In this document: piece by piece, positions 31,801 through 59,579 of the stretch
How positions within the stretch are numbered: the stretch's first letter is position 1
Layout: each line of letters begins with the position of its first letter
Assembly: GCA_965645245.1 (NCBI GenBank)
Contig: OZ287070.1
Span: 2,480,001-2,544,000, forward strand
Length of the DNA stretch: 64,000 nt
Origin: Massalongia carnosa
Lineage: Eukaryota
Reading direction: 5' to 3'
Program-made: the position numbers and the translations under genes
Notes under the pieces: generated by a model
Databases searched by the model: none
Told to the model about the DNA's origin: nothing
The model's input: only the letters and a program-made list of their open reading frames with translations

Positions 31801-32579
31801 AAGAAAAACCTTTTACTGCTAGGCGAAGACCGCTATCTTTCGACGCTGATGCTCAAAACTTTTCCGAAGCGAAAGCAGGTGTTTGTGCCACAAGCCGTTT
31901 GCAAGACCACCGTTCCCGAACAGTTCTCGGTCCTGCTCTCTCAACGGCGGCGATGGATCAACAGTACCGTTCATAACCTAATGGAGCTGGTTTTGGTGCG
32001 AGACTTGTGCGGAACTTTTTGCTTCAGCATGCAATTCGTTGTCTTCATCGAGCTGGTTGGGACCTTGGTTCTTCCTGCCGCCATCACCTTTACCTTTTAC
32101 CTGATTGTGATCTCCATCGTGAGGAGGCCGGTACCTGTCATCCCGCTCGTGCTGTTGGCATTGATTCTCGGATTGCCGGCCATCCTTATCGTTCTCACCG
32201 CACACCGTTGGTCGTATGTGCTGTGGATGTTAATCTATCTTCTCTCCCTGCCAATCTGGAATCTGGTGCTGCCATCTTATGCTTACTGGAAGTTTGATGA
32301 TTTCAGCTGGGGCGACACCAGGAAAACGGCGGGCGAGAAGACGAAGAAGGCGGGGATCGAGTACGAGGGCGAGTTTGACAGCAGCAAAATCACGATGAAA
32401 CGCTGGGGAGATTTCCAAAAGGGTACAGCGTGTTCCTCTTCCCAAAGCTCTCTCGCGCTAACAATCCACTTCTAGAACGCCGCGCCAAACCTCCCACGTC
32501 GGGATTCTCGCATCAATCCACTACAGCCTCTGGGTGGCACTCACCTTTCCCGGGATACGAGCAGTACACTGATACATGA
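28813..32579 (+). CDS. CHS3: Class IV chitin synthase (GT2; yeast Chs3 orthologue), exons 28813-31565, 31614-32422, 32476-32579
   Basis: [13 protein letters not shown] and AWREKMGLI class IV N-terminal motifs, then [30 protein letters not shown] and QRRRWINST, followed by C-terminal TM helices. No myosin-motor domain. Confidence 0.95.
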
Positions 32580-32985: not shown

Positions 32986-35933
32986 TATTCACGATAGCTG
33001 TGATTTGTGGAAAACCTTTCCTGGGCAGGGTTGAAGGACTTGGTTTTTGGTGGGTTAGGTTCTCTTATCTCTGTTCTTTTCTTCTTCTGTTTTCTTTCTT
33101 TCTTCTTTTTTCTTTCTTTCTTCATCCCCACTCTTCTTTCTTTCCTTGACTGCTAAACTACCTACCTGCCTGCTTGCCTGCCTATCTACCTATCTTACTA
33201 TCCATCTTAACTATCCAACTCAACATCCCATCCCCAACTCCTAATCTCTTAATTCCTTATTCCTCCCTCCGTCTCTCCCTCTTTGTTTAGGTTTCCGATA
33301 AAATAAAATAAAATATTTTGGTTAAAGTTGAATATTCTTCGCTTCTTCACTTCTCCGCTTCTTCGCCTTTCTAGGATTCGTATGGGTAGTGGAGTTTTCT
33401 TATTTTTGTTTAAACTCTATTCATATATATAGACGAACCTCGTTCTGCTTCAGACATTTTTCCTTACTTACATACCTATCTATCATTCAGATACCAAGCT
33501 ACTTAGCCCTTTAACCATTTAACCATTCAAATCATCCAATAATTACCGCGAAGAAACTTTCCCGAATGCCTACGTACCTATCTTCTAGGGTTTCCGGTCA
33601 ATGGGGCGAGCGATTGGCAGAGAGAGAATGAATGTATTAACTGTTTTCTTTCTTGCTTTTCTTTTCTTTTGTTTCTTTCTCTTATTTTTTCGTGGGGCTT
33701 TTTGGAGATTTTTGGAGATTTTCTATGGTAGGGCTGTTGATTGGCTGGTTAGTTGGTTGATTGGTTGGCAGGTAGGCAGGCAGGCAGGCAAGCAAGGGGG
33801 GGGGTTGGAAAGTGGAAACTAGAACTCGTTGCACGGTCAGAGGCTTAGGAGATTCATTAAAAAATGGTACGTATATATATTTCCATCGTCTACCTGACCC
33901 CCGTACTCCCCTATCTACATAGAAAGCCCCACCCTATATATCTGTCTAAATTAAAACACCCCTCGTATCACAATGATGGATACGTGTATATAAAAGCTAA
34001 GAACTAGATTATTGTATGTATGTATCCGACTTAGAAAAGAGCACAAGCGAAAAAATTAATTTTAGAGACATTATTGCTCTGGATGAACCCTTAGGAGAGG
34101 GGAAGAAAAGATATAAATATGTATTGTCAACACTTCTTTTGGAATAGATATCTTGAAATTCGCGAATGAAAAATTTGATCTTAGATTAAGGTTTGCTTAC
34201 TTTGGGACGGAGGAGGGGGAATGATGAATGATTCATGGGGCGATTGATGGAGTGATGATGTTCAAGGAATGAAGGAGAGGTAGTTGGTTGGAGATCATGG
34301 CTTTGAGAATTCGGATCATCACATAGGTAGTCAGGTAGTTAATTTTACGGGTTGAGCTCCTCCCCATCGCTCTTAGTTATCATCAGGATACCCGCGAGGC
34401 GAACGAGTTCTTTGAACCCCTAGTGGTGCTCAATGGGAGAGAAATATTCATTCCCGTATCACTTAATTCTTACTTTGAGAGATTCTTGACTCGGATCATC
34501 CTTTCTCTTGGAGTTGGTTACATGGATGGATTTGGCAGATCCGGTTGTTCATGGGGAAGTACAATAAGGATTGCCTTTTCCAATTTATTCTCTTAATGTG
34601 GATGTATATGGAGGGGACAACAGATCTGTTGAGTTGTTTAGCTGCTCTATCTGATGAGGGATTGGCCGATTCTCAATAGAGAATATCAGGCAATTCTCAT
34701 TATCGATGATTAGAGCTAACATTGCGGTTTCCAAGGGATTGGAGTGGTTAGACGACTCTTGATATTTTTCGGATCAAAACTCGTGACATGCATACTAAGA
34801 CATATGAAATCCACACACAAGAATCGGAAGTGCTACGATGTGGGGCCAGCGGGCTTGATCATTGACATGGATGATAATTTCCATACACTTCCCATGGTGT
34901 GGAGAATGCATGAATGCTGGGACGCAGAATTCAGACAACATAGAAAGGTCAGTAGGCGCTGATTGATCTGGTGGTTGCCCAGCTCCACTAAGATTTGGAG
35001 CGTAGGTATCCAGTCTTGCTCTCTTTCACGTGGACATTTTGAAGGGATTATACACTTTTCTGAAATTTAAGTCGTTGAAACAAGCCAATTGATCTCTCCC
35101 ACGCGCTTAAGGAGTCATGTGAATGAAGATCCTCATAACTACTTCATAGGTAGCACCTTCGGTTCCATTCAGATTGCATCGTCATTTACAGCCACGAGAT
35201 CGATTCAATCTGTGGTACTGAGTGGCTATACGTGGTTGTTGAGAGGACGAACAAGGGCATTGTTTCTCAGGGTTGGCTAGGTGGAAGATCATTTCTGCAA
35301 GGCATTTCCCCACGAAATTGCGAATGAGCGGGTTAAGCCTCTTCTGGCTAGTTAGTTATCTAGATGGAAGATTCTTCGGGTTATCAATCTCCCGTGGTTC
35401 TTCCGTTCCTCGTCTCCTTTCCGCTTCTCCTTTTCGACATTCACATTCATACAACGTGGATAGTACTCACTCGCAGTCTTCTATGAGTGGTCAATCGTGG
35501 CTAAAGCATCAGCAAAGAACATATGTACAAAGCGCTTCATGGCGTTTGGTGACCCAAGCTAGCGTAGTACTATTGCACCGTTCTTAATCTTGTTCTCTGA
35601 TGATCGAGCGGCGGCGAGTCTAATTACCTCGACTAATGGCGGCAGAAGATCAAGCACAGGACGTCAAGCTTAACCCAATTCATGTTGCTCATCTCCTGCT
35701 CCCGTCTTGTGCTTCACCACCTACCGTCGTGGATTTCTCGTTTCTTTCTTCGTTTCTGTCCTCTTGTCTCATGCATTTTTCTCTTCATTGTCATGCGCGT
35801 TGAACTGTACTTTACGCTTTTACTGTATGTTAATTGGCAATAATATCACCCGCTTCACTCGTTCAGCGGATCTTCCTGAACGTATAACAGTTACTGCCTC
35901 TCAGAAGCTCTCCCTTCGCGCAGCTAGTTTGGT

Positions 35934-37428
35934 ATGAAAACTCTTGTGGGTACCGCTGTGGCTCTGGCTCTGCTTGGCTGCACAGCCGCGGGTCCTCATG
36001 GCCATGCGCACGAAGCATATCACCTCAAGCGCAAAAATTGGGATTCGGGTAGCCCGACATGTGGATGTACGACAACATATACGACCTTCTATGGCGAGCC
36101 AACTTGTAGGTGAGCCCAGCGTGAGAGGAAAAAGTATGACTAACATCGCGCAGTAATTCAACCCTTGAAACAGAAACCAATGGCACTTCCCCCACCATCT
36201 TCTACCCTCGCCCCAACCTTCACATCCTCCACACCCCTTCCCTCCTCCACTTCTCCTGCCTATGTTACCCCGAGCCCAACCCTCGAACATGTTGCTTCGT
36301 CCAACGTCGCTAAGCCATCTGCGAAACCCATCGAAGGAACTGCGCCGAAGCCGGTGGAGAACGTGTTGCAGAAACCCGCGCCAAAATCCTCGGCGCAGCC
36401 CGATCACGTCGAGGCGCCCAAACCATCGGCAAACCCAAGCCACGTCCCCGCGCCCAAGCCCGCCACGGAATCGCCCACGCCAAAACCCGAGACGGCGAAA
36501 CCCCAACTCGGCTCCAGCGGATCGCAATGGTGCATGACCTACTCGCCCTACAACGGCGACGGCTCCTGTAAATCCAGCGCGGCCGTCTCCTCGGATGTGG
36601 AGGCGATCGCGTCCAAAGGCTTCAGCAGCATCCGGCTCTATAGCACCGACTGCTCGGGCCTTCAAAACGTCGGCTCGGCAGCCAAATCCCACGGGCTGAA
36701 ACTCGTCCTCGGCGTTTTCATCTCCGGAACTGGCCTGGGCGACGCCTCGGCGCAGATCGCCGAAATCACCGCCTGGGCCGGCGGCGACTGGGCCTGCGTC
36801 GAGATGATCGTGGTCGGCAACGAAGCCATCTTCAACAACTACTGCAGCGCCTCCGCTCTGGCGGACTTCATCACCCAGGCCCGCGCCACCTTCGCTGCCG
36901 CCGGCTACCGCGGCCTCATCACTACCACCGAACCGCTCAACGTCTTGACCGACAACGCCCACCACCTCTGCCCCGTCCTCGACGTCGCCGCCGCCAACAT
37001 CCACCCTTTCTTCAACGCCGACGTCACCGCCGTTGGCGCTGGCGCCTTCGTCGCCCGTGAGCTCGAGCTGCTCGAGACCATCTGCCCCGGTCTTACCGGG
37101 TATAACCTTGAGACCGGCTGGCCGAGCGCCGGCTTGGCCAACGGCGCTGCGGTCCCGGGCGTGAGCGAGCAGCTCGTCGCCATCGAGAGCATCAAGCAAG
37201 CGGCCGGTGGCAAGAGTGCCTTTTTTAGCTTCGTGGACGACTTATGGAAAGCCGAGGGCGAGCTAAGAGTGTAAGTTTGATCGGTTTTTTCCCCCCCCGC
37301 CATCTTGCTTGGAGATAAAATCTGACGGATGTGTGTATGTATGGGGTTATGGGGGTTTTCATTCGCTAACTTACGCGTGTCTTTCGTATAGTGAGCAGAG
37401 CTGGGGCTGCAGCCACTTGTTCGGCTAA
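35934..37428 (+). CDS. Secreted GH17 cell-wall beta-1,3-glucanase/transglucosylase (Scw4/10/11-like), exons 35934-36105, 36154-37270, 37392-37428
   Basis: Signal peptide MKTLVGTAVALALLGCTAA and a Pro/Ser/Thr linker. GH17 motifs MTYSPY, IRLYSTDC, VVGNEA, ANIHPFF, LETGWPSAG and terminal VEQSWGC. Confidence 0.88.
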
Positions 37429-38681
37429 GGGGGTTTGTGTTTTCGCCCGTTAACGCCGCATGCGTACGTGCGTGCGGACGGACCGGCCGGACGGACGGAC
37501 GGGTTGGGCAGGCTGAGTAGGGATCGGATGGGAGGGAAGGAAATGGATAGGTATGACTCTTTCGGTTTGGGTGTTGAGGTTGTTGAAGTTTGGGAGCAGG
37601 GAGCGGGGAACGGGGATGAAAGAGCGGGCGAGAGAAGAGAGAAAGAGAAAGAGAGAGGAAGAGAGGGAGGGGAGCGGTTCGTTAAGTGTATTTTACGTTT
37701 CATGTGTTATTATTATTACTAGGTTGAATTCACATTGTGTGTATATAATTATTCTTCCTCTATCCTACGTTCGTCTCCATTTCTTTCAACATATCCCCCT
37801 GCCTTTTCCCCTGTCCCCAGAACCACCCAACACTTGAATAGCACATTTTCACGATAACAACAGTTCGTCCAAACAAATCCACACCAAACCAAAAAAAAAA
37901 AAAAAACGGCCCCCCACATGTTACTACTACTACTATACCCGCACACCAACTCCCCGACGTAAAACCAACCCCCCCCGGCCTAAAAATTTCACCAATTCTT
38001 GGTTTCTCTCTTCCATTTTAGACACGATCGATGAATGTGTATATATAGATTTACTTCACATATCAACTGATAAGCAAGGGGGGGGGGGGGGGTAAGAGAG
38101 AAAAGAGAAGATGGATAAAAGCCATAAAAGGAAAAGGGGAAACGGGGTCTATTCGGCGGGAGACGGGGAAATGGCTAGGTGTGTATATATGTATGTATGT
38201 ATGTATGTATATAGAAGAATTTACGGTGGTGGGGAAGATTGTGGAAGGAGAAGAAGAAGAAGATTCAAAAGGGGGAGGGGGGAACTGCACGATTGCTTGT
38301 GTAAACTACATTGCCTATGTAACTGACTTTCATGGTAACGTACTATATCAAGATAGTTTCATCTACCTACTACATAGCTAGGTATGTAGAGTAGAGTGTC
38401 TAGATGCTCTAGATATCTGGATATCTGGTATGGTTGTTGATTGTGAAAAATATAAAAATAAAAAAACCAAATCGCTGGAAATGGATCAATCGCCCCGGAA
38501 CATAAATCGGGATCAAAATATATGGTCAAGACAAGAACCTAAACCGTAAAAGCTCGCGTCTAGTCAGTCAGTCAGTCCGTCACAAGTAACTCCCCCATCC
38601 CACCCGACCCCGACCCGACCCGCAAGAAAACGCTAGACGATAAATCAATACCCCTACCTACCTACCTACCCACCTACTCCA

Positions 38682-40145
38682 TCACACCCCCTTTTCCTTC
38701 CCGAACAGCGCTTCCCAATGCTCCCGCCCCCGCTCGCAGACCTGGCCCCGGCCTTCCCAATCGCGCAGCACGCCCTCGAGTATGCACTCGCCCGTGAGCA
38801 TCTCGCGCCACACGGCGCGCTCGAGGTCGATGCCGAACTGCTCCTCCTGCGACTCCTGCGGCCCCCACAGCCGGCGGTGCTCGCCGCCCCACGTCGTGAT
38901 CCCCGGCTCGTCGACCAGGTGGCCGAGGTTCATCTTGGGCATGTTGGCGTGCAGGAAAAAGGGCCGGATGGTGGGGGCTTTGCCGCCGCTCCCCGAAGGA
39001 GCGTGGTGGGCGAGGTATTCGTCCCCCGGGTGGTGCTGCACCATCGCGCCGCCCTTGAACTCGCCCGCCTCGTCGAAGTAGCCGACCGTGCCGACGCGGG
39101 CGCGCACGCGGTAGTAGGGTTTCCCCAGCACGAGGGCGGCGGCGATGAAGGTTTCCTTGTCGCCTTCGCCGGAGGCGCCTTGGCTGAGCAGCGGGTAAAA
39201 GTGGTGCGGGCCGAAGATGTTATAGTACGCCGCCAGCAGGAGCGAGGCGAGATGTTTCTCCTTGTCGATGAGTAGCTGCCCCGCTTCGGTGGAGCGGGCG
39301 GGGACGTGAGCGGGGAATGACGGCAAGCCGGCGATGGTGTAGAACACGGGGTCTTCGGTCGCGATCCAGTAGTCGGGCCAGGCAATCAGGCCCGTCGAGG
39401 TGAACGGCTCGGCGGACAGCAACTCGGCCGGGTTGCGCACGGGCATGCAGTCGCTGTCGAGGTAGAGCACGGTGGAGAAGGGCGAGAAAAGGATGGCGAG
39501 CGCTTTGAGCTGGAAGCGCGAGATCGCAAAAGACGCGTGGTCGCGCAGAAAGTCCTCGAGCACGAAGCATTTCGCCCCTAGCAAAGGAAGGTGCTCCTCG
39601 CACACTTCCGCTTCGTACTCCCAGTGCGCCTGCAGGAAGACGTGCACGGGGAGCTTGGAGCCGGTGCGGCGAAGCATGCGGATCGAGGTGATGGCGGGCG
39701 CAAAGAATTGTCCCCCGGCGACCATCACGACCCCCGTGCCGGCGAAGACGCCCTTGGCGCTGCGGGCGTCGAACCGCCTCAGCCGGTCCAGCAGCGGTTT
39801 CTGAGCTTTTTGCAGCAATTCCACGGCCTCCTGCGACAGGTCTAAGCTGTTCTGGCTGGGCTCCCGGTCCCCGTCCGCCTCGTCCGAGCCCGCCGTCGAC
39901 GCCGAGACTTGCACCGTGATCGGCTCGGTCGGCGGGCGGGAACGCTCGAAGGCGGCGGCCCATTCGGCCCAGAAGGCTTTGATGCGTTTGGGGGGCGGAT
40001 CCGGCTCGTGGATGGGAGCGGAGATGATGCTGTATCTCTGGTTGGTCACTGCTTTCAGCCAGCTTTCCAACAGGGCCATGGAGATGATGAACGTGAAGGT
40101 GGCGAGAAGGAGGACGGAGAAGCGGTACGAGGGCCGGGCGAACAT
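38682..40145 (-). CDS. Alpha-mannosyltransferase, GT71 (Mnn2/Mnn5-like) type II membrane protein, 487 aa, intronless
   Basis: N-terminal TM anchor (VLLLATFTFIISMALL), GVVMVAGG, IRMLRRTGSKLPV, FQLKALAILFS, DxD motif in LYLDSD, WPDYW and GEGDKETF. Confidence 0.88.
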   Translation of the reverse strand: MFARPSYRFSVLLLATFTFIISMALLESWLKAVTNQRYSIISAPIHEPDPPPKRIKAFWAEWAAAFERSRPPTEPITVQVSASTAGSDEADGDREPSQNSLDLSQEAVELLQKAQKPLLDRLRRFDARSAKGVFAGTGVVMVAGGQFFAPAITSIRMLRRTGSKLPVHVFLQAHWEYEAEVCEEHLPLLGAKCFVLEDFLRDHASFAISRFQLKALAILFSPFSTVLYLDSDCMPVRNPAELLSAEPFTSTGLIAWPDYWIATEDPVFYTIAGLPSFPAHVPARSTEAGQLLIDKEKHLASLLLAAYYNIFGPHHFYPLLSQGASGEGDKETFIAAALVLGKPYYRVRARVGTVGYFDEAGEFKGGAMVQHHPGDEYLAHHAPSGSGGKAPTIRPFFLHANMPKMNLGHLVDEPGITTWGGEHRRLWGPQESQEEQFGIDLERAVWREMLTGECILEGVLRDWEGRGQVCERGREHWEALFGKEKGV

Positions 40146-42914
40146 GATGGCGAGGTTGGACGTTGCGAGGGCGGAGGAAGCGGGTGGGTTGGACGGCACG
40201 ATGATGCAGATTGACAATGATACAGACACATGGAGAGGAGGGTTGGGGAGTAGCACATGGTGAGCCCCTGAGGCAGCTGAGGGAGATTTTTCGCCGTTAT
40301 AGTGTCATTCTGTCAATCTGACATGATTTCGTTCTCAGCCACCGTCTCCGCCCCTGTTGAATGTTTATTAATGTTCGACCAATCCGGTAAGGACGGTAAT
40401 GATGTGATCGGCGTTTGGTGTTTTGTGTTTTGAGTTTTGTATTTTCGTACCATACGGGTATCCTAGTGCTGGGTAAGTTTATGTATCAAACCCTGAACAA
40501 CGCAAATTCTGGAATGCGCATCATCGTCCTGATGCATGGTTCATGAGCCCGCAAAGATTCCCTTTCGTTTGATGTCCATTTGTCTTCCGAGTGAAGCAAA
40601 ACACCGCGGATCGAGCTGTGTTCGGTACAGAGTGGTACAAAGTCCGCCGTACGACACCATACGAATCCCTTGGCAAAGGGACATAGCGTATGCACAGATG
40701 CCAATTCACACTTCACTTTCCTCCATACAGGCGACGTTTACCACCATGTTCGGCACTCCATTTGGCTTTCGGCCCTTCCTCTTCGGGTGCCAAGGAACCA
40801 ATATTCCCCTGAAAACGTGCTCCATTAGTCCCAAAAATCAAACCCAAAGAAAAAACCCCCAAAACTCCAAAAACCCCAAAAATTCAAGAAGACATCGAAT
40901 GTTGGCTACTTTCCGACTTCGTGCAACGGTCTTGATTGCATACTCGGTACATGGACAGAGTAGAGTACAGAGGATGCGAACATGAAAACACGTCTTGTTA
41001 CCGAATCTGGCCTCACGTCTTTTGTAAATACCTTGTACATGAAATACGGCCTTCTTTATTGTGCCGGTGCTGTACCGTCGTCTGGACAGTATATGTAACT
41101 TCGTAGTAAAGGTGTTCGTCCAGATTCTGCAGGCTCATGACAACGATCTCTTGTAGTGATCCTTTCGTTGACTCATTCCAATGGGAAATTACGTTGCGGC
41201 GATTTCATCGTCTATTTCAGGTCGAAACTCGTCGCTCCTGCAGAGTACTGCAGAGTACTCCATCTACATCCTTGGAACCAACGTCCACACCCGTCTCATG
41301 TACATAAGCACACCCGGCCGAATGAAGCTTTGAACGCGCAGGCCAAAGGGAGGTAGTTAGGCCCTTAGAAAGCAAGCATCTCACGCAATATTGAATGATG
41401 ACCATGACACGAACTGGATAAAAGACCAATGAGCGATCATCCAAACCGTGGCCAATACCCAAGTTTGAAACGTTTTCGACCTACAACCGCCGGCAACGAT
41501 GGAAATACCAATGTCGCCCAATGACATCGAAATGTTAGCAGCATTTCGTCGAATAGTTCCGCAAAGCGTATACGCTCGAATGCAGTCGGCGTTTGCTTTA
41601 GTGATCACGGATTGTAAAACGTTTCTCTCCCTGGCCACCAGACTGACGTCCTCCAATGATCTTCCCAAGGTCGGCTGGATTAGTATTCTTCCGTTACGGT
41701 CTTGAAACCCCGTCTGGCTGTGGTCTTTACAAAAGCACTAGAACCGAGTGAGTGGAGTCTTGTCTCCGAAGAGCCGTCCACCATCAGTCTACGCATCTCC
41801 TCTTCACATTCCTTCACAGCTCCCGGGACACTGGTAGCCTTTGGTCATCCATATTCTGCTAAGGCCGTAAGCCCAGCCATTAATGCTACCACTTAGAATT
41901 CACAGGATAGAAGTCAGAAAGGAGAAAGAGGGGTATTAACGTTTATTGTGGAGGTACAGACTAAGACTATGCATGTTGGGGTTCCTGGATACCTCAGGTC
42001 TAAAGAGGAGCGTCCAAGAAAGATAACTAGGCTCGCTTGACAGTATCTATATCTTCATTATCTGTATCACTGTTTGCTGTATAGGAGTTTTTTAAGTCAG
42101 CCTTCGTTTCGATATCGGTGTTCTTCGTTTTCAACGACCTCGGTTGTCAAAAAGCTCACTTTTGAAGAAGGTTGTAGAAGGGAAAACTCTAGAGACTTAT
42201 GACTTGACATTCAGGTCAACTCTGAACCCTCCAGGAAAAGACAATATTCTCGGATTACTAAACGCATGGTGCGTTTCGAGTATCGTCGTTCTATTGTTGT
42301 TGTTTTTAAATAAAAAAGATCTCAACGATCTTAGTCTGTGTCGTTGAATGAAATTTATTCTTGATTCTTGAGAGCATAGAGTGTCGAAGGTAAGCAATGT
42401 TGTATGTTTTATAAGAATGAACGTTGACGCAACCGAAATATTTATTTATTTAATAATGACATTATTAAACGGGTTCCAACAAAGAGCAACCCTTCATAGA
42501 TGGACCACCTGTCCTCCGACTCTTGTTTTATGCTGTTTTCTTATTCAACTCAATCTTCAGTTTGCCTATCATGTATGCCTGGATAAGCTATCAGCTGGCT
42601 TGTGAAGAACGTACCTACGGAATTGTTATTCTGACATGTAATAGGTATCACTCGCTGGCAATCAAAGCAGCTTAAAAACTCATGCATCGTGTCAGTTTTC
42701 ATTCCAGATTTCTCATGTCTCAATGCCAGCGTCACGGTTTTTCAAGAGACAAAGCACCAAGGACTCGATTTTTTTTTGATTAGTCTTCAGCATATATAAA
42801 CAATGCACTTAATTTTTCTTATCTTGTCTCATTTCTCCTTCATCCCCCCTTTTCTCCCGTGCTGCTTCTTGTCCTCCACCATCATATTTCATATTTCATT
42901 ACCCTTCAAACTTC

Positions 42915-42922
42915 TATAAAAA
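42915..42922 (+). promoter_or_regulatory. TATA box upstream of microprotein gene 1
   Basis: TATAAAAA in the context TTCTATAAAAAC, 128 bp before the ATG; the same 12-mer precedes microprotein gene 3. Confidence 0.5.
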
Positions 42923-43042
42923 CATCAGTAGCTTTCACTCGAGAACCTTTCACCTCCACATCATCACTCAATTCAACTACTCATATCTCAAATCCTCAAG
43001 ATCCCCTCAAAAATCTAGATAATCACACTACCGAATCAAACC

Positions 43043-43225
43043 ATGATGGACGATATCCTCTTCCGCCTCTTCGTCCTTCTGGTCTTCGTATATCTTTTTC
43101 TAGTCAGTTATATGATACGCGTCACACATATAGCCATAGAAGAGATAGAGGAATCGGAGTTCCGTGTTCCAGCCCTGCTACAAGAGCAGAGCGAGCGCGA
43201 GCGGGATCAGGAATCTAGGAAATAG
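43043..43225 (+). CDS. Putative 60-aa single-pass membrane microprotein 1 (MMDDILFRLFVLLVFVYLFLVSYMIRVTHIAIEEIEESEF...)
   Basis: Strong start context CAAACCATG, upstream TATA, one hydrophobic helix and a charged tail. DNA and protein similarity to 44026-44214. Confidence 0.6.
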   Translation: MMDDILFRLFVLLVFVYLFLVSYMIRVTHIAIEEIEESEFRVPALLQEQSERERDQESRK

Positions 43226-44025
43226 GGGCTGGGGCTTTGCGGGGTTGGTTGATAGCTTTATTTTGGAGAATTGCTTGATAGTTAAGCGGTTCCAGGAAAA
43301 AGTCAGCTAAATTGAGATACAGTTATTTGTTTACGACCTGTTTCTCGCTTTAGATTCGATCAGCGCAGACTTCATTTAGTTACGTTCCTACTGCTTTACA
43401 TCAAGCTAGGGTAGTTCCGAAAAAAACGTGGTTCACCTAATCTGCATGAAGTCTTATAACTTATAATCCAATGTTATGTACCTTGTACCTAAACCTTCGC
43501 CCAGAAGCCGGAAAGAGGAAATGTCATGTTCATTGACTCGCCCCGTTGACTTGTCTACATTCTCGATCTTTTTTATTTTAATTTCTTTCATCCTGGTCAC
43601 ACGTTGTGTTGGGGTCTTTGTTGTGTCTTTTTCGTCAATCATCGCTTATTGAGTCTTTTGAAATGTTCCCCGAGAGGTAATAAGACCTTCGAACTTGCGA
43701 ATATGAGAGTTGAGCAAGAAACTGCAAGTAAGTCCAGATAAGGAAAATACTGCGTTACGAAGTGACACAGCGATGTTGTATTTTTATCATTTCTTCTCTA
43801 CAGTTCCTTTGATTCGTTTCCCCCTTTTTGTTCCCATCTCCTTCTGATTCCTCAAGCCATTATTCCCGTCTTTCGTCTCCAGTCCCGATTCCCAACCATC
43901 ACTATTTCTTCCCCCCCTCCCCCCATTTTCCATCCTCAATCCCTTATGAAACCTCATCCTTCTTCACCCCTCTAACCATTCAAAAAAAAATCTATCTTCC
44001 TTTCCCACAACCGCAAACACACCCA

Positions 44026-44214
44026 ATGGCTCCCAAATACCAGCAAACCGCAAGGTCTATACCAACCGATGACCTTATCTGCATCCTCCTGATCCTTCTG
44101 GTTTTCTTTGCTCTTGCCCTAGCTCTGATGTGGTTGGTGGAGCTCCTGATACGCGTCTATTTGCTGCCCATCAGGCAGGAGAAAAGGGGGTGGGAGGCGG
44201 GGAAGATGGTTTAG
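44026..44214 (+). CDS. Putative 62-aa single-pass membrane microprotein 2 (MAPKYQQTARSIPTDDLICILLILLVFFALALALMWLVELLIRVYLLPIRQEKRGWEAGKMV)
   Basis: ATG-initiated 3' half of track ORF 43828-44214. Shares DD...LLVF...IRV with microprotein 1 and P-x-[DE][DE]L...L[VA]EL with microprotein 3. Confidence 0.6.
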   Translation: MAPKYQQTARSIPTDDLICILLILLVFFALALALMWLVELLIRVYLLPIRQEKRGWEAGKMV

Positions 44215-44739
44215 TAAGGGGGGGGGGGTTGGGGTAAACGGGATTAGGGGAGCCGAGTTTAGAGGACTGGCTTTTTTTATCGAACTTGGAGACTTAACGG
44301 TCTAGCTTGAAGTTCTTGAGCACTTTTTTTCTGACCCTAAGTCTTGTCTTTTTCGGATTTTTCTGGAAAATTTTTTTTTCTCCGACACCTAAACTCCCCC
44401 AACTCCAACACCCGCACGGCTTTTCCTTTCCCGGACAGGACACAGCGTTTGGTCATATCCCGTGATGTATCAAGAGATAGATAGGTCATGGTTTTTTTCT
44501 TTCCAAAAAATCCAGATGAGACACTTCTTTCTAACCTATCGATTGAGGGTCTTTACAATTTCATTGTTCTCTCCTTGGTGGTCGATTACAGCGATTGCTC
44601 TCGGCAAGTAGGCTACTCGGAAATCTGTTCGCTAGGTTCGCTCTTTTAATCTATCGGTCTTTGTTCTTCCCTTGTCCCCATTTTCCCCTATTGTCTCCTT
44701 CTCTTAATCTCTTTCTTTCACATACCCTCTCTGTCTTTC

Positions 44740-44747
44740 TATAAAAA
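44740..44747 (+). promoter_or_regulatory. TATA box upstream of microprotein gene 3
   Basis: TTCTATAAAAAC, identical to the 12-mer before gene 1. Confidence 0.5.
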
Positions 44748-44793
44748 CCCCTCCAGCCATCCTTTTCAAATCCTTTTCTCTCTCATCTATTGT

Positions 44794-44870
44794 CACCATC
44801 ACCACCATCTCAATCACCACCACCACCATCTCAATCACCACCACCACCTCAATCACTACCACCACCACCA
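44794..44870. repeat. Imperfect (CAC)n-CATCTCAAT tandem repeat in the putative 5' leader of microprotein gene 3
   Basis: About 3-4 units of CACCACCAC(CAC)CATCTCAAT. Confidence 0.7.
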
Positions 44871-44936
44871 ACAGCATCTCTCACACCATTATCATCATCG
44901 TCATCTCCATCTCCACCACTAAAACCTACATAGACC

Positions 44937-45074
44937 ATGGCTCTCCCATCCTGCGAAGAACTCCTCCTCGTTCTGATATTTCTCTTCTCTTTGATCGTGA
45001 TCCTGTTCTTGCTCGAGTTAGCGGAACTAGATAGAATTATTGCCGAGAATGCCGATGAAGGCTTGCCGTATTGA
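44937..45074 (+). CDS. Putative 45-aa single-pass membrane microprotein 3 (MALPSCEELLLVLIFLFSLIVILFLLELAELDRIIAENADEGLPY)
   Basis: Below the ORF-track cutoff and translated by hand. Optimal context GACCATGG, upstream TATA, acidic pair then an 18-residue hydrophobic stretch and acidic tail. Confidence 0.55.
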   Translation: MALPSCEELLLVLIFLFSLIVILFLLELAELDRIIAENADEGLPY

Positions 45075-46298
45075 GGAAATTGGTAAAGAGAAATGGGTGG
45101 TAGGGGTTGGTGGATTTTGGTGGTAGGAAGGTAGGTAAAGCTAGTAAGTAAGTAGGTAAGTAGGTGGTGAGCGCTAGGAGGCTGGTTTTGCGAATTTGCC
45201 GTGATGTTGCTCAGATTTTTGGAGTGGAAAAGGAAGAAATACTGAAATTTATAGTCGGGAGATTTAGCGCTCTTCTCGCGTAAGTCATAGAGTTGATAAA
45301 TACTACTTTCCCCTGCTATGTTTCCTATTTTTGAAATCTCTACCGGCAGATATTCTTTCATACACAGCGGATGTAGAAGAAATCAAGCCCAAGTTTCGCA
45401 CAATACCTACATGTAAAAGTCTAGAATGCAAAAACAGAAAAACCGTGAGAAAGAGGAATGAAGTCGAAGCGCTTGGTTCAACGTATTATTTATAGTGTAG
45501 CAGATGTTGCGCTTGAGGTGTGCTGAATATAGGATTGGGAGGTTGATTGATGATGGTGGGTGATGAGCATCCCCTTGTAATATCTTTTCATGATGTAACG
45601 ACACTTTTCTCGAGGAGACTATAGAGACCAGGCGATTTTACTATTCGAGGTTATTCAAAAAGATTCTCCAGAAAAACGGAGACTGGTCATAGAAAACAGC
45701 GTGCTTTAGAAAAAAACAACAATGCCTTTCAGCCAGATTCGCAGAGAGGGAAGAACGCCTTTTTCTCTTCACGGAAGTGATCATAGGATATGTAAAAGCA
45801 GAAGGACTTCAACGCATTAATAGAAGCTCGGTCATGGCGAGTTCCTTTTGGGAAATGTGCGACATGCTATTTACATATGACACTAATCGCAAACGTTATA
45901 GTCATCCCCCGCTGGAAAGAGGGAAAACTAGTATCTAGAGGCGATAAAAAAAAAGGGAATACATAGCTAAAAATGTAATTTGCACTCATAACGTAAAGTG
46001 AACTGCTAAGCGTGTATCATCACTCTCTATTTCTTTATGATCTATTTCCCAATCCGAAATCTAACAGTCGCTGTGCATGTTTAAAATACGTGGAAAGAAA
46101 ATGTGCTGTAATAGGAAAGCGGAAATTTTGCCTTTTGAAGGTCGTCTTTGAAAAAGTATGAAGAAATGGGAGGTTGGAAATAATGGGATAGAGAGGAGAA
46201 GACGCAAGGGGGGCGGGAGGATGAAGAGTTGAAGTTAATCAAACTTTATCTGAACCACCAAGCTATCGAATCCTAGTATCGACGACGGCTTCGCCTTT

Positions 46299-47904
46299 TC
46301 AAACGTCGTGCTTTGTTCTCGTTCTTGTCAGCATTATCGGAACCTGAATAGCATAGATAGGGCTCCTTACAACTCTCGGTAATCTCATTCGTTGTCTTCG
46401 TTGTCTTAGCCTCTTCGTTTGTGTTTCGTCGGCGGGGGTCTCACCATTCTGCACCTCTCCCTCTGCTTCCTCCTCCTCGTTCTCTTCGCCCTCTTGTTCT
46501 CCTTCCTCTCCTTCCTCCTCACCAGCTTCTCGGTACTCGCCAACCTCAGCATTTGCAGCAGTATTCCGCGATACATCTCGAGCCGCAACCCATGCCTCAT
46601 GCCCTGGCGCGCCAGGAAGATTATTCGTATGATAACGACAATCAGACTTGTGATGCTGGTTTCCACGGTGGGCAATACGTTTATAATCAGCATAGCAAAT
46701 CCAACAGTATTGATGCTTGCAACGGGGACCTGTACTCGAAACATTTCACGTAAGTCGGTATCTCAAATAAAAATCAGTAAAAAAGGCGGAGAACGCACAA
46801 GTCATATGGTCACACCCCGAGACCTTCTTCCCACGCACCCCGCAGTTAGGACACAGTTTAGAATTCTTTCGTAGGTATTGTGAGGCTGCATTCTCGTCTT
46901 TCTCGACCGCTTCCGCGCGTTGGGCTTGGATCTCAGCGCACGGGATTTCCGGATGCCAGACGATGTCACACGCGATGCAGGTATGCCCACCACAATCTCG
47001 GCATATCATGTAGCTATCCTCGAGCGGGAAACAGTGCTGGCCCGAGTTGCAATTTGGAAGCCAGCAGCGCTGAAATTGCCCAGCTGATAGGCAGGCTTCG
47101 AGGGAATGACTATCGTACCTGATGAACCAAGTGTAAGCAAGGACCTTTCTTCTTCGCATTAAGATAGAAAAGTATTTTAGATTACCTTTCGAAGATAGTT
47201 GGCTCTGCAAATAATTTCACGTCATGGTGTTCGAGGCGTTCGTTGCATGAGGGGCAGCTAATTTGATCCCAAAGCTTGCTGGTGAACTGCGAAGAAATTG
47301 ATTGGCGGATACATCCGAGGCAGACATTCGCTCCGTGAGTACACGATGCGGTAATTTTGCGCTTCGGGAAAAGCCTCGCGTTCAAGGTCTCCAAGCAGAC
47401 ACTACATACTTGGCTTGTATAGTTTTCGCCGATAGCGGCTGAAGCCTGAGCTGGATGTGATGAGATTGGGTTAGACTCAGCTGAAAAGGGCCCAATCTTG
47501 GTTGACCCATAGGTATCGAAATCCTCTTCTTCCTCTCCCGTGTCATCATCTTCATCGAATGTGTATGCTCTCTTCTCTCTCGATTTAGGCTTCGGCATGA
47601 TTAATTCGCTCCATGTTGAGGGAGAAGAATATGAAAAAGGTTCCACTCGTTGCCAGCGTCGGGCTAGTGACCGGGCTGATTGGTAACCGCAAATCGATAT
47701 ACGGTCTACAGGTGAAAGATCGTGTTCCCGGCAAAGCCTGGCGAGCAGGCGCATCAAGGAAATCTTGGGCGTATCCTGTGGATATCCTATCTCGTAAAAA
47801 CCAAGTACTTTGTGTAGATCTTGAATTCTCCAACATTTCCAGCTGCAGCCAAGCAACGAAGCCGGTATTTGAAGTATCTTATACTGCGTTTCTAGAGGGG
47901 TCAT
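46299..47904 (-). CDS. RBR (RING1-IBR-RING2) E3 ubiquitin ligase, exons 47904-47186, 47118-46799, 46729-46299
   Basis: RING1 CSVC...CTH...CLGC...CPSC. IBR C-WLPN-C...CRDC...CIAC...WH...C. RING2 CPNC...GCDHMTCPRCKHQYCWIC with the catalytic Cys. Acidic tail; 3' end uncertain. Confidence 0.85.
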
Positions 47905-49380
47905 GATGTGAAGAGAGGTATTTTGTAACCAAGTAAGAGATAAAATACTCTTAAATTCTGAAAAAAAAAAGGTAATAGGAAGACTTAAACTTGCTCTAGA
48001 TATAATTTGAATATAACGAAATTCTAGATGAGATAGTGTGAACGTGAGGAGATGTGGATATGATTATTCAAGATAACTAGGCAGGCGACGTGCGATCCAA
48101 GGTAAAATGGCCGAGTCGATGAGGTGGCTGGAGGTTTATATAAGAAAAGCCTTAGCTAATTCACCTGTGGAAGAGAAGGTGATATCAAAGATTGATGTTA
48201 GTTATCGGGTTGTTTAAGGTATGAATGAAGTAGAGACCAACCTTGTCGAGTCTAGAACCAACGTAGATCCACGTTTTTAGAAGAGGTAAAGCTGAAGAGT
48301 GCATAATTTTTAGGCAGGAGAATAGACAACGAAGTATTCAGCAAAAAATATTTAGTTGACAGAACTTGGAGTCAACATATTTATTATTAAGGTGTAGCGT
48401 TGAAGTTTGTTTGATTGGAGAGTAGGATCATCGAGAGCAGCAAACTCGGTGAGACTCAATAGAATTTGGATTTTATTCAAAGCTAATATATTCTCACCAT
48501 AATGAAAGGAGAGAAGCCTTACCTTCTTCTCAAGGTATGTCAATGAGCTGATGATAGATCATATGATAGTCGTGGCAGAAAACAGCGGATATCAAATTCG
48601 ATCAAAAGCTTGAAAGAATGAATGAACTCCATAGCATGGGAGCCGAGGTGTAGTGGTATAAGGGAGTTGGGTGATGCGGAAGAAAAAATAATATTTCCGC
48701 TGCGTCTAGGAGAAAATTAACTCAAATGAAATTTAAACCCTTCGGCTAGAGAGCCATTGGAATAAAAACTTGCCATGTAATCTATTTAATCTCACTCCTG
48801 CACTATAGCCATTGGAAAAGAAGGTTTGCTCTGGAATTAGCCCGGAGCTGAAATAAAGGCTCTATATGTAAATTCGAAGGAGATCCAAGCCATTAACGAA
48901 TGCTACGTCTCCACGAGATTCGTCAGATTCCTGATAAAACCCACAACCTTTCTCACGAGGTTGCAAAGTGGAGTCGATAGCATCCCACTCTTTCGTTTCC
49001 GGAATCCCTAGAGTTAAATGACTTGGCTGTGTATTGAAAGCTACCATTGGTCGTTTTTCTATAGAGGTGACCTCTATCGCTAATCTTAACAATGGCCAGG
49101 ATGATCTTTCAGATATTTCCGGTGTGAATGACATTAGACCTGTTAAAGGTGATGATTGCGGCATTCTTCTAAATTGCTAAAATGTCGGGTTGGAAAGAAA
49201 AACCGGGAAAACGGAACCCTGGCTAGATAGAGTACATAACATGTAAGCCGTGGAAGAAGCTCTTATTTGAGCGCCATCAATCTAAAAAGAGGTGTGGATT
49301 AGTCTAGGCGTACTGCAAGTGACACAAGTTTGGGATTGCTCTATTGATGATCAGCCGCCCTTAAGTTGTCACAAGCCTCG

Positions 49381-49720
49381 TATTGTAATTGAAGCTCTGC
49401 TGGCATAGTAAAAAGCTCACTTTTGAAACGATTGATCTTTCTATCTACCTATCTAAGGACCGTGTTTATATAGATAGAAAAACATGCCGAAAACCATTCT
49501 CCCTATGACTCACCTTCCTGCTTCCTAGAAATCTAAGATTGGTGATTGACTCATATCCAATTTATGACTCGATGGGAATGTTCATAGAAGTTTTTGCGGT
49601 GCTTCTCGAGGTCGTTATGTGTTGCCTAATGTTCTTACCAACGCACTAATCCCAATGCGGTACTATGTGACTCTGAACACTTTACTAGGCATCAGCCGGG
49701 TGACTTTGCACATTACAACA
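49381..49720 (-). repeat. 3' LTR (340 bp)
   Basis: Direct repeat of 54249-54588; no mismatch found by eye. Confidence 0.95.
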
Positions 49721-49838
49721 CTCCCACTGCAAAGTTGCCAGGTGAGTAATAATATCCTAAACGCCGGTTTCCAATCTGATTTTGTGTGGCCTATGTGGTC
49801 AATTTAGGTGGCCTTATGATGAAGCGTCCTCCATCTTC

Positions 49839-52800
49839 CTATGCCTCTCTTAGGCCTAATTTCTCGCGCAACTTTCGAAAGATAGGTGCCGCCAGTGGTT
49901 TAGTGAAGATATCTGCCACCATATCGTGAGTGGATACGTGCTGTATAGTGGCATAGTTGTCTTCAACGACCTCCCGAAGATAATGAAGCTGAATATCCAT
50001 ATGTTTGGACCGACTATGGTGCTCAGGGTTTTTTATCAAATCGAGCGTACCCTGGTTGTCGCCATTTAGGATAATTGGTAGGTTCATATCTTTGGAGAAG
50101 TTCAACTCTCCGAACCATCTAGTTGCCCACACTATATCTTTTGAAGCCTGGCACATGGAAGAATACTCTGCTTCCATGGTGGATGTGACGACTGACCGTT
50201 GCCTCTTACTGGCCCATATAACTGCCCCGTTTCCTAGCATCAGAACGTGGCCATATGATGATTTTCTATCATGGTTATCACCATACGCTGCATCAGCATA
50301 ACTAGTGGGTCCGGTGTCATTGGGTTCGTAGGTAAGTGCCAAATTCGTGGTCCCATTCAGATATTTCATGAGATGGTCTACCGCGTTTCGGTGCCTAATT
50401 GCTGGATCGTGCGTATATTGACTAAGCTTTCCAACTGCTTGGGCAATGTCTGGTCGCGTGTTGATCATCAAAAACATCAAACTCCCTATCCGTTCTTGAT
50501 ATTCTAATTGGTTTGTCCTAGGTTCGTTGACGATGGCAGGACTGCATGCATCATAGTTGATCATAGGGGTAAGGACTGAATTTGCTTTATCCATCTTATA
50601 TTTCTGCAGGAAGCTGCGAATGTAAGATGATTGGTCAATCATTATTTTGTCTTTCTCGCGACGTATGCGAATCCCTAAGATGAACTTTGCTGGCCCTAAG
50701 TCTTTCATATTATATTCCTTTATTAGTAGACTTTTGAGCTCCTTTATGGCTGTCATGCTTTTGGAAAATATCAGAAAATCATCAACATAAAGGCTAATGA
50801 TAACGTGGGTAGTGTGATTAACGAACACACAATTGTCTCCTGAGAGCGCTTTGAAACCAATGGATGTTAGATAATTGGTTATCTTTTTATTCCATCCTCG
50901 GCCAGATTGTTTGAGACCATAGAGGCCTTTCAGAACGCGCAACACATGGTTCGTCAGATGTGGGGGAAGCACCAAGCCTTGGGGAGGCTCCATATAGATT
51001 TCGTCATCTAGGGAGCTTTGCAAGTATGCGTTTGGTGCGTCCATTTGCTCAATATGGAAGTTATATTTACATGCGAAATATAGGAGCATTCGTAAGGATT
51101 CATACCTTAGGGTGGGTGAAAACGTGTCCCCATAGTCTGTCCCGGGGATTTGTTTGAAGCCCCTTGCTACTAATCGTGCTTTATAGCGGTCAACATGGTT
51201 AGTAGGGGTGTATTTCACTTTGAAGACCCATCTAGCGGTGATGATGTTCTTATCTGCTGGTCTTTCAACATATTTCCATGTATTATTGGCGGCGAGAGCA
51301 TTTAATTCGTCTTGAATAGCAATTTTCCATTTGCGATGGTCAGTGCATTGCATGGCCTGATTATATGACTGCGGCTCGTACACTTTGGATGGTTGTTTTG
51401 CTATATTTGCCCGGTCCCGGTCCTTTTTGTTTCCATAAGAGTTATCGAATTCGTATCGGTTATACACATCTTTCCTGCGGTTGGAACGTCTGGTAGGTGA
51501 TGAAGAAGGGGTCCTATTTGTCTCCTGAGTTTGGTTGTTTTGGTGCTGGGCACCTGCATCATCTTGGTGCAGATTATCCTGAGCACCTGCATCATCATCC
51601 TGATGCTGAATACCATCGCCCTGGTGCTGATCACCATTAGTAGGAACTCCCACTTGATCAGTAGTAGGGTGGTTGGTTGGTGGTGAAGATTCATTGTCAT
51701 CGGAAGAGTCATCGTCATTTAGGACGACGGACGGGGATGATAGGCCTTTTGTAAGTAAGGATCCCCCCGGTCTTTTTTCATCAAACTTTATTGAAGTCTG
51801 AATTTCCACCTTTTTTGTTTCCACATTGTATAACCTATATTGATTGCTTGAATGATATCCGGTGAATATTGCCTGATATGACACATTATCTAGTTTGGAG
51901 CGTTTTTCCTTTGGGACATGCACAAAAGAGACGCATCCGAACGTACGAAGAGTGTTGATGTTAGGTCTTAGCCCGGTCCAAGACTCATTAGGCGACGTGG
52001 TGTTGGTGGTAGGTAAGAAGTTTCTGAGGTGGTTTGCTGCTACTGCTGCTTCCCCCCAGAAAGATTGTGGCAATTTGGCCCATACCAACATAGACCTTAC
52101 CATTTGAACAATGGTTCTATTGAATCTTTCGGCGACACCGTTCTGCTGGGGCGTGTATGCGGTGGTTGGCTCCATACGAATTCCTAATGGCTGAAGTTGC
52201 TCTGCGAGATATTTATACTCTTTGGCATTATCAGCACGAAAGCGAATGATTTTGAGCCCCTTTTCCAACTCGACCATTGCCTTCCAGTCTTTTATGATGC
52301 GGTATATGTCTGCCCTACTTTTCATACAGAAGAGCCAAGATTTTCGGGTATAGTCGTCTATCAAAGAAACGAAATAGGTATGCCCACCTAAACTGGCCTT
52401 CTTATATGGACCCCAAACGTCAGTATGTATTCTATCGAGTGGTCTATTTGCCTTCGAGAAAGGAATTTTGCTGATTGTACGGGTCATCTTAGTTAAATTG
52501 CAAATCTGGCACGGTAGGTCCAGAATTGCCTTTGAAAATTTCTTCCCTGTTGCTTGTTGAAGTCGTATATCATTGGGGTGCCCCAATCGTGTGTGCCATA
52601 ACCAATATTGGGCCTCATTGGTGGCCTCATTGGTGGTCTCTTTGGGTGCTCCCACTGGATCGCTATCGATGCAGTCAGGGGTAATAGGAGGAGGAGTTTT
52701 GGGTTGAATTTCGCCGGAGGAAAGCGAGGTCAGATATGTGGTTGATTTAAGGTTTGCCGGTGGTTCGGGGCCATCTAAATCATCATTTTCATCATGGGCT

Positions 52801-54125: not shown

Positions 54126-54234
54126 GGTCCAATAATAGGAGAACTGATGGATGGAACGAAGAGAAGTATGGCTTCGTAACTTTGAAAAACAACAGAATAG
54201 ATAGATTAATTTATGCGGAAGAAAAAATTGCTTT

Positions 54235-54248
54235 CCGGGCTCATAACC
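54235..54248 (-). other. Primer-binding site complementary to the anticodon arm of initiator tRNA-Met
   Basis: Element-sense GGTTATGAGCCCGG directly abuts the 5' LTR. The plus strand reads CCGGGCTCATAACC, the tRNAi-Met anticodon stem-loop with CAT anticodon. Confidence 0.85.
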
Positions 54249-54588
54249 TATTGTAATTGAAGCTCTGCTGGCATAGTAAAAAGCTCACTTTTGAAACGAT
54301 TGATCTTTCTATCTACCTATCTAAGGACCGTGTTTATATAGATAGAAAAACATGCCGAAAACCATTCTCCCTATGACTCACCTTCCTGCTTCCTAGAAAT
54401 CTAAGATTGGTGATTGACTCATATCCAATTTATGACTCGATGGGAATGTTCATAGAAGTTTTTGCGGTGCTTCTCGAGGTCGTTATGTGTTGCCTAATGT
54501 TCTTACCAACGCACTAATCCCAATGCGGTACTATGTGACTCTGAACACTTTACTAGGCATCAGCCGGGTGACTTTGCACATTACAACA
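54249..54588 (-). repeat. 5' LTR (340 bp)
   Basis: Direct repeat of 49381-49720; element-sense ends TGTTGTAAT...ATTACAATA. Confidence 0.95.
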
Positions 54589-59445: not shown

Positions 59446-59488
59446 CGTGGAAGGTTATTGGGGGTGAGATAAGAAGCGGGGAGGACTG

Positions 59489-59504
59489 TGTTGTTGTTGT
59501 TGTT

Positions 59505-59579
<75 letters not shown>

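Follow-up and report, generated by a model that had tools for sequence, protein, structure and literature searches.

The gene-poor interval at 40350-46250 of a 64-kb piece of a chromosome of the fungus Massalongia carnosa (contig OZ287070.1, positions 2,480,001 to 2,544,000; hereafter, the window) raises the question of whether three short open reading frames (sORFs) found there on the forward strand are small genes for membrane peptides or frames open by chance. The frames, referred to here as genes 1, 2 and 3, occupy 43043-43225, 44026-44214 and 44937-45074 within this 6-kb interval, which has a mannosyltransferase gene on one side and an RBR/IBR gene on the other. The initial annotation, made from the sequence alone, had described them as a tandem trio of paralogous genes for single-pass membrane microproteins with a shared gene-unit architecture. 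The reading that we prefer, with a probability of roughly 0.45, is that genes 1-3 are lineage-restricted (orphan) genes or proto-genes for single-pass membrane microproteins, each forming a separate short transcription unit. The wider proposition, that one or more of the three are genuine small genes or proto-genes confined to this lineage and encoding single-helix membrane peptides, appears slightly the likelier case. The features observed directly in the DNA are the frames themselves, their hydrophobic cores, their non-random clustering, the gene-like base composition of codon positions 1 and 3, and upstream DNA of promoter-like composition.

Open reading frames and hydropathy

Re-examination of the forward strand recovered all three frames as previously located, with lengths of 60, 62 and 45 amino acids. 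The product of gene 1 (43043-43225) has an N-terminal DD pair, a hydrophobic core at approximately residues 5-25, the tripeptide IRV and an acidic tail. That of gene 2 (44026-44214) carries DD at residues 15-16, a core at approximately residues 17-40, IRV and a basic tail, and that of gene 3 (44937-45074) has EE at residues 7-8, a core at approximately residues 9-26 and an acidic tail. The maximum Kyte-Doolittle mean over 19 residues (KD19) was 2.49, 3.34 and 3.17 for genes 1, 2 and 3, respectively. The acidic pairs DD, DD and EE lay immediately N-terminal to the cores and the opposite side was flanked by R, K or E, and the hydropathy profile agreed with the earlier description of an acidic pair directly before a hydrophobic helix and a charged tail in each peptide. 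The features listed as common to genes 2 and 3, P-x(1,2)-[DE][DE]L and L[VA]EL, were also all present. A hydrophobic stretch of about 19 or more residues with charged flanks, as expected for a single-pass membrane protein, was found in genes 1-3, as a prediction from hydropathy only. The start contexts of the three frames were AACCATGA, CCCAATGG and GACCATGG, that of gene 3 being ACCATGG, and the start codons had A or C at position -3 and, in genes 2 and 3, G at position +4.

An antisense ATG frame of 170 amino acids (44849-45361, reverse strand) was observed to span gene 3 together with its flanks. This frame is probably not a gene, because it is of low complexity, has no Pfam match and averages close to zero (-0.026) in codon score.

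The open frame of gene 2 reaches 71 codons further upstream without an ATG (43813-44214), which favours an explanation in which the frames are parts of larger units, either as the opening exons of spliced genes missing from the annotation or as what remains of membrane-protein genes, one or several, that have decayed. The location of all the hydrophobic frames on one strand agrees with such an origin, as does a loose donor, GTAAGG, that overlaps the stop codon of gene 2 and is followed by a branch-like TTAAC and a TAG approximately 90 nt downstream, as judged by eye; the known introns of the window have comparably loose donors (GTAAGC, GTAATC and GTGCGT). A longer spliced product of gene 2 is conceivable because of this loose donor and the plausible branch site and acceptor nearby. 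In contrast, a strict donor/branch/acceptor scan of 42700-45600 yielded one candidate intron, at 43728-43882, which touches no sORF, and the gaps of 400-900 nt between the hydrophobic segments greatly exceed the length of two introns read in the window, which measure about 55-65 nt. In addition, in-frame stop codons stand 8 codons (gene 1) and 2 codons (gene 3) ahead of the ATG, and no significant Pfam match was obtained for the 28 open frames of at least 65 amino acids in 40350-46250, where two matches at E<=0.1 were well below the curated cut-offs. We consider it quite unlikely that the three frames belong to longer genes or their relics.

Other origins for the interval were tried and rejected. 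A transposon or long terminal repeat (LTR) relic was dismissed as nothing but a microsatellite connected 40301-46300 by similarity with other parts of the window, and a relic mutated by repeat-induced point mutation was dismissed on the basis of a TpA/ApT ratio of 0.76 and a (CpA+TpG)/(ApC+GpT) ratio of 1.20. The absence of any Pfam domain from the 28 open frames likewise led to rejection of a decayed known gene. Neither Rfam families nor tRNAs were detected in 40350-46250.

Local clustering of membrane-like frames

The chief alternative to small genes is that the frames are chance ORFs in non-coding DNA, in which strongly strand-asymmetric C-rich, G-poor tracts followed by G-rich tracts would represent regulatory, structural or long non-coding RNA sequence, and T at the second codon position would make the ORFs read as hydrophobic peptides. 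This is a substantial possibility, to which we nevertheless give clearly less than even odds. The distribution of membrane-like frames, defined as ATG ORFs of 40-90 amino acids with KD19 of at least 2.4 in the six frames of the window, bears directly on it. Seven of the 225 ATG ORFs in this size range reached the threshold, and five of the seven fell within 43043-45074, namely genes 1-3, an ORF at 43476-43652 on the forward strand, and one microsatellite-encoded frame on the reverse strand. The ORF at 43476-43652 is located between genes 1 and 2 and encodes 58 amino acids with KD19 of 2.62. On the forward strand of 42700-45400, four of the six ATG ORFs of at least 45 amino acids were membrane-like.

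Mononucleotide shuffling within blocks of 30, 60, 120 and 300 nt (1500 shuffles each) predicted 0.109, 0.078, 0.058 and 0.029 membrane-like ORFs, respectively, on this strand of 42700-45400 when compared to the four observed, and three or more were obtained in only 1, 0, 0 and 0 of the 1500 shuffles. The remaining 33,272 nt of intergenic DNA contained one such ORF, with both strands counted, against 0.81 expected (standard deviation 0.9, 300 shuffles), indicating that the shuffle null is calibrated for the window. As the null fits the other non-coding DNA, the membrane-like excess is local. These results demonstrated that the membrane-like sORFs do form a local cluster, one that is unusual in statistical terms and goes beyond local base composition, and the presence of four such frames on one strand of 2.7 kb, where 0.03-0.11 were expected, argues against chance ORFs.

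The intergenic control is important here because intergenic DNA of budding yeast exceeds shuffles in its potential to form membrane segments, according to the available text of two reports (PMC10063215 and PMC7005711). In the former (Tassios et al. 2023), as far as that text goes, budding-yeast intergenic DNA encodes membrane-like stretches above composition-preserving shuffles, and the surplus is evenly spread, without hotspots, averaging a few percentage points. The interval of M. carnosa resembles this effect in that membrane-like frames are commoner than shuffles predict, and differs from it, within what the available text describes, in that the excess forms a 2.7-kb hotspot (4 against about 0.1), whereas the other intergenic DNA of the window matches expectation.

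A similar arrangement was observed elsewhere in the window, at 33060-33800, where a CT-rich tract and a TATA-like ATATATAT are accompanied by a membrane-like ATG ORF (33601-33822, 73 amino acids) and then a G-rich tail. Low-complexity tracts on either side of this unit (approximately 33160-33190 and 33765-33795) are near reverse complements of each other. The arrangement is likely a chance counterpart to the three sORFs, because the codon use of its ORF is background-like, ranking 105th among the 130 intergenic sORFs described below.

Codon composition

The codon composition of the frames was evaluated by a log-odds score derived from 4869 codons of the Pfam-supported frames of the window against intergenic trinucleotides. 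Genes 1, 2 and 3 scored +0.056, +0.127 and +0.100 per codon, respectively, when compared with a mean of -0.074 (standard deviation 0.109) for the 130 intergenic sORFs of 40-90 amino acids, among which they ranked 18th, 5th and 9th. A true signal-peptide exon at 35934-36113, the first exon of a neighbouring secreted-protein gene and a member of the 'intergenic' set, scored +0.108. The GC content at codon positions 1 and 3 of genes 1-3 was 0.56-0.68, similar to that of the training genes (0.57 and 0.60) and above the local GC content of 0.40-0.44. Gene 1 showed 0.63, 0.23 and 0.57 at positions 1, 2 and 3, and the GC content at the third position (GC3) of gene 2 was 0.68.

The ORF at 43476-43652 between genes 1 and 2 gave a background-like score of -0.143, ranking 92nd of the 130, with GC3 of 0.45, and is probably a chance ORF in T-rich DNA. 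GC3 was 0.44-0.45 for this frame and the ORF at 33601-33822. The three sORFs thus differ from two clear chance ORFs in both codon score and GC content at positions 1 and 3, which counts against chance as their origin. Thymine content gave a second comparison, with 0.268 in gene 1, 0.270 in gene 2 and 0.333 in gene 3, against 0.323 in the region and 0.272 in other intergenic DNA. With a T content of only 27%, genes 1 and 2 cannot be put down simply to T-rich DNA, which also counts against chance ORFs. The gene-like codon composition of genes 1-3 is supportive but not strong. A sliding codon-score scan of the DNA for extra exons highlighted microsatellite frames alone.

Relatedness of genes 1, 2 and 3

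The sequence TCCTTCTGGT occurs twice in 64 kb, at 43074 in gene 1 and at 44093 in gene 2, and TGATACGCGTC also occurs twice, at 43113 in gene 1 and at 44147 in gene 2. The two words, each of which matches in frame, are spaced 39 nt apart in gene 1 and 54 nt apart in gene 2 and so differ by 15 nt in spacing. The shared words and the 15-nt in-frame difference noted at first inspection were therefore recovered, and the words proved unique to this pair. Such in-frame words common to genes 1 and 2 are not readily expected of chance ORFs. Two collinear exact words of at least 10 nt were obtained for genes 1 and 2 in only 1 of 3000 codon-block shuffles (p ~3e-4).

Protein similarity was assessed against shuffles that preserve the hydrophobic block (5000 per pair). 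Genes 1 and 2 gave a score of 47 against a null of 30.1 (standard deviation 4.8), corresponding to z = 3.53 and p = 0.004, while the similarities of gene 3 to gene 1 (p = 0.72) and to gene 2 (p = 0.33) were at shuffle level under the same null. Whole-sequence shuffles gave p = 0.0005, 0.054 and 0.033 for the three gene pairs, and these values flatter all pairs because the hydrophobic block is destroyed. The MAFFT alignment of genes 1 and 2 comprised 43 aligned residues, of which 18 were identical, nine of the 18 with different codons, and the identities at codon positions 1, 2 and 3 of the 33-codon core were 0.48, 0.70 and 0.48.

Genes 1 and 2 are probably true old tandem duplicates, and kinship of gene 3 with them is doubtful, as its likeness in design does not amount to demonstrable paralogy. 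The description of a paralogous trio accordingly holds, weakly, for genes 1 and 2 and was overstated with respect to gene 3.

Flanking sequences

The TATA-like 12-mer TTCTATAAAAAC, which contains TATAAAA, has just two copies in 64 kb, one at 42912-42923 on the forward strand, 131 nt before the ATG of gene 1, and the other at 44737-44748 on the same strand, 200 nt before the ATG of gene 3. For comparison, TATAAA occurs 19 times on the forward strand of the window. The exact 12-mer reported before genes 1 and 3 was thus verified, but the 'degenerate TATA' assigned to gene 2, TTATGAAAC at 43944, is a weak match, and the ATG inside it (43946) starts a 9-codon upstream ORF ahead of gene 2.

The leaders of genes 1-3 contain 2-9% G (3-6% over the 200 nt that precede the ATG), and upstream ATGs are scarce or absent in them. 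The leader of gene 1 (42843-43042, forward strand) is rich in C, T and A with 6% G in 200 nt, its last 240 nt are free of ATG, and the nearest upstream ATG is at 42803. That of gene 2 (43826-44025, forward strand) is C-rich with 4% G and 41% C in 200 nt, the nearest upstream ATG being that at 43946. That of gene 3 (44749-44936, forward strand) has 3% G in 200 nt and no ATG within 400 nt upstream, and includes a CAC/CAT-type microsatellite at 44788-44931 (repeat family D1). The tails, in contrast to the leaders, contain 32-57% G (42-57% in the 40 nt after each stop codon). Directly after the stop codon of gene 1, a G-rich tract at 43226-43250 (forward strand; 42% G in the first 40 nt) is found with GGGG runs at 43225, 43231 and 43241. 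The G-run tract after the stop codon of gene 2 (44218-44250, forward strand; 57% G in the first 40 nt) fits the four-run G-quadruplex pattern, of which five instances, including this tract, occur on the forward strand of the window. The tract after the stop codon of gene 3 (45075-45180, forward strand) is G-rich and C-poor, with 43% G and 3% C in the first 100 nt. In 42000-46000 there are ten runs of at least four G, and eight of them coincide with the stop codons of genes 1-3 or closely flank these on one side or the other.

The base counts therefore bore out a C/T-rich leader and a G-rich tract past the stop codon in each unit, and the DNA upstream of the sORFs is promoter-like in composition. 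CT-rich tracts and start contexts of the kind seen here are tied to fungal promoters and translation starts, and the good start contexts are a point against chance ORFs. A hairpin between leader and tail, or another structured RNA, was rejected, as the minimum free energies gave z = +0.89, -0.42 and -0.28 (100 dinucleotide shuffles each).

Homologue searches and the case for chance frames

A number of results weigh against real genes and on the side of chance frames. The region 42700-45400 was chosen post hoc, and its p-value is weakened by the approximately 48 comparable 2.7-kb stretches on two strands. The excess of membrane-forming potential over shuffles in yeast and fungal intergenic DNA, within the available text of PMC10063215 and PMC7005711, also points in this direction. 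The codon scores of genes 1-3 fall under the mean of 60-codon chunks of the training genes (0.227, standard deviation 0.188, n = 68), and microsatellite frames in the sliding scan equal or exceed them. Across the six frames of the window there are 30 stop-free hydrophobic stretches, many of which are surely non-coding, and the unit at 33601-33822 combines a similar CT-rich leader, membrane-like ORF and G-rich tail with background codon use.

The similarity evidence is also partly adverse. Whole-unit DNA alignments were at chance level (z = 0.64, 0.94 and 1.18; 100 dinucleotide shuffles each), and the DNA common to the units, covering promoter, leader, ORF and tail, consists of short exact words only; the 'shared gene-unit architecture' is consequently a compositional likeness and not alignable DNA. 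The similarity of gene 3 to genes 1 and 2 likewise appears to lie within chance. The tblastn comparison that the initial annotation had proposed, run on the window, did recover the cross-match of genes 1 and 2, but equally good unrelated matches accompanied it and no further copy of the sORFs was found in the 64 kb. With gene 1 as the query, gene 2 was matched at E = 0.056 and an unrelated place (3089-2973) at E = 0.041, and with gene 2 as the query, a membrane segment of the chitin synthase (30316-30378) was matched at E = 0.009 and gene 1 at E = 0.061. Genes 1 and 2 are thus roughly as similar to unrelated hydrophobic stretches in the window as they are to each other.

Protein searches covered 5.8 billion sequences (word-indexed) and 1.84 billion representatives (profile). 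The word-indexed search with gene 1 returned only gene 1 itself, those with genes 2 and 3 returned no match, and a profile of genes 1 and 2 against the representatives returned gene 1 alone. Gene 2 has no entry as a called protein in the searched libraries, even from its own genome. The hmmscan search of Pfam at E<=10 gave Nse4_C (0.13), Nodulin_late (0.78) and HemY_N (0.087), all far below the cut-offs, and nothing for gene 3. The ESM Atlas provided no usable match (best score 0.84; recognition scores of 1810 and 2041 against a mark of 2300). No relative of gene 2 was detected among viral contigs and metagenome contigs, and no syntenic relative was found when the neighbouring mannosyltransferase was compared with metagenome contigs. 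As gene callers seldom report fungal ORFs of this size and gene 2 itself is missing from the libraries, these blanks indicate orphan status at best, not absence of function.

The same searches bear on a further explanation, that the frames belong to a conserved specialised family of microproteins, which might regulate pumps or channels, serve as small toxins, or link the RBR E3 ligase to the membrane as adaptors. The general design of an acidic pair, one helix and a charged tail, and the closeness to the RBR/IBR gene, are the only points that suggest it, and the link of the sORFs to that gene is nearness alone, genes 1-3 lying 1.2-3.3 kb from its 3' end. No relative was present in either protein set, no Pfam match was obtained, and the ESM Atlas was equally uninformative. 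We regard such a family as highly improbable.

Proposed working of the putative microproteins

Under the preferred reading of genes 1-3 as orphan microprotein genes or proto-genes, we infer their transcription, translation, membrane insertion, topology and any function from the features of the DNA, as follows. A core promoter of TATA type, clear for genes 1 and 3, would drive a short mRNA with a G-poor, unstructured leader, on which the first ATG in good context would open a frame of 45-62 codons. The hydrophobic helix of approximately 20 residues may act as a signal anchor and be inserted into the endoplasmic reticulum membrane. Membrane topology follows the positive-inside rule, because of which the acidic N-terminal pair would be directed toward the lumen or the outside, and the first basic residue past the helix (within IRV for genes 1 and 2 and within DRI for gene 3) would lie in the cytosol together with the charged tail. 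The topology of gene 3 is ambiguous, its tail being net acidic. Any effect of the peptides would presumably be exerted through helix-to-helix contact with larger membrane proteins. The G runs past the stop codons might help to end the short transcripts, which is purely conjectural; G-rich pause elements occur in other eukaryotes.

Single-helix regulators of P-type ATPases offer one parallel for such a mode of working, and include the yeast proteolipids Pmp1 and Pmp2 and the animal peptides phospholamban, sarcolipin and other 'regulins'. The predicted products of genes 1-3 are like Pmp1/Pmp2, phospholamban and sarcolipin in their size class of approximately 30-60 amino acids, in having a single membrane helix and in the short run of charge that adjoins the membrane. 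Unlike these regulators, they show no sequence relation, as Pfam lists no such family at E<=10; known small membrane families in Pfam, such as the Pmp1/2 and Pmp3 proteolipid families, were not matched by genes 1-3 in the hmmscan search. No pump gene was found near the sORFs among the Pfam-supported frames of the window, and the resemblance concerns a possible mode of working only.

By their sequence features, the three frames come closest to the 'TM-first' emerging ORFs described from budding yeast. Vakirlis et al. 2020 (PMC7005711) describe, in the available text, de novo membrane proto-genes of this kind, e.g., YBR196C-A, which is 48% T. Insofar as that text describes them, genes 1-3 resemble TM-first proto-genes as short, homologue-less ORFs in pyrimidine-rich intergenic DNA that have one predicted helix and are invisible to standard gene callers. 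Homologues outside close relatives, which TM-first ORFs lack in that account, were not found for genes 1-3 either, with the limit that the libraries cover fungal ORFs of such length poorly. The thymine-rich coding sequence described there is seen in gene 3 alone (0.333), and unlike YBR196C-A, genes 1 and 2 contain 27% T and gene 3 contains 33% T. A further difference from the proto-genes, again within the available text, is that three or four frames form a tandem cluster on one strand, two of which may be duplicates.

Orphan and de novo membrane microproteins are already known, and what is unusual here, if true, is the tandem arrangement together with the flanking signals. No fungal tandem family of membrane microproteins appeared among the literature matches listed, which is no proof that none is in print.

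Genomic setting

The other open frames of the window with Pfam support encode a DHDPS (8783-9922, reverse strand), a protein with a MutL-type mismatch-repair C-terminal domain (14703-16943, forward strand), a Polo-type kinase (18639-21554, reverse strand), OPA3 (22647-23690, forward strand), a Sel1-repeat protein (24510-26597, reverse strand), and a chitin synthase with a CHS4-like domain (28753-32475, forward strand), the frame of which is split by an intron of approximately 55 nt. The interval with the three sORFs is bordered by the gene for the mannosyltransferase, a Mannosyl_trans3 protein (38682-40304, reverse strand), and that for the IBR/RBR protein (46299-48063, reverse strand), both also supported by Pfam, and farther on lies a copia-type retroelement with a 1481-residue open frame (49839-54284, reverse strand) and 341-bp LTRs.

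The Sel1-repeat gene and the chitin synthase gene are neighbours in divergent orientation. The yeast class IV chitin synthase acts together with a Sel1-repeat activator, and because of this partnership the two genes may be a functionally linked pair. In the copia-type LTR retrotransposon, which extends over 49381-54589, the gag-pol frame is uninterrupted and the two LTRs (49381-49721 and 54249-54589) are 100% identical, so that the insertion looks recent and possibly still active. A long trinucleotide microsatellite was observed at 59473-59657, which reads as poly-Leu, poly-Val or poly-Cys on the forward strand and on the reverse strand lies inside an open frame (58980-59675), in which it gives a long poly-Asn run beside poly-His. 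A run of 15 G was also found at 38078-38092, in the intergenic stretch that separates the frame at 36144-37274 from the mannosyltransferase gene.

The contigs of three sequencing runs, the kind of which is unrecorded, were identical to the window without variants, and are thus uninformative on expression or selection. One of the three, which has a different organism label, contained 0.71 of the words sampled from 42800-45200 of the window. Its contig pieces in 41000-47500 showed no differences where they cover the window, at a low depth of about 0-10, and on account of this agreement the same fungus seems to have been present in that sample.

Implications for small membrane proteins in fungi

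If genes 1-3 are not expressed, the interval would show that non-coding DNA of fungi can contain local clusters of membrane-like frames far in excess of the prediction from composition. If they are expressed, they would be genes skipped by annotation pipelines and would provide an example beyond budding yeast of small membrane proteins arising from non-genic DNA, with possible tandem duplication. The sharp switch from G-free leader to G runs at the stop codons would in that case deserve study as a signal of very short transcription units. The most far-reaching form of this idea, which we consider unlikely on the present evidence, is a young lineage-specific family of single-helix membrane microproteins that was born in non-genic DNA rich in pyrimidines and later expanded through tandem duplication. 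Every copy would retain a TATA promoter of its own, a G-free leader and, immediately past the stop codon, a G-run element of quadruplex type that helps to end a short transcript. If true, such units would constitute a compact 'microgene cassette' of a type not described for fungi.

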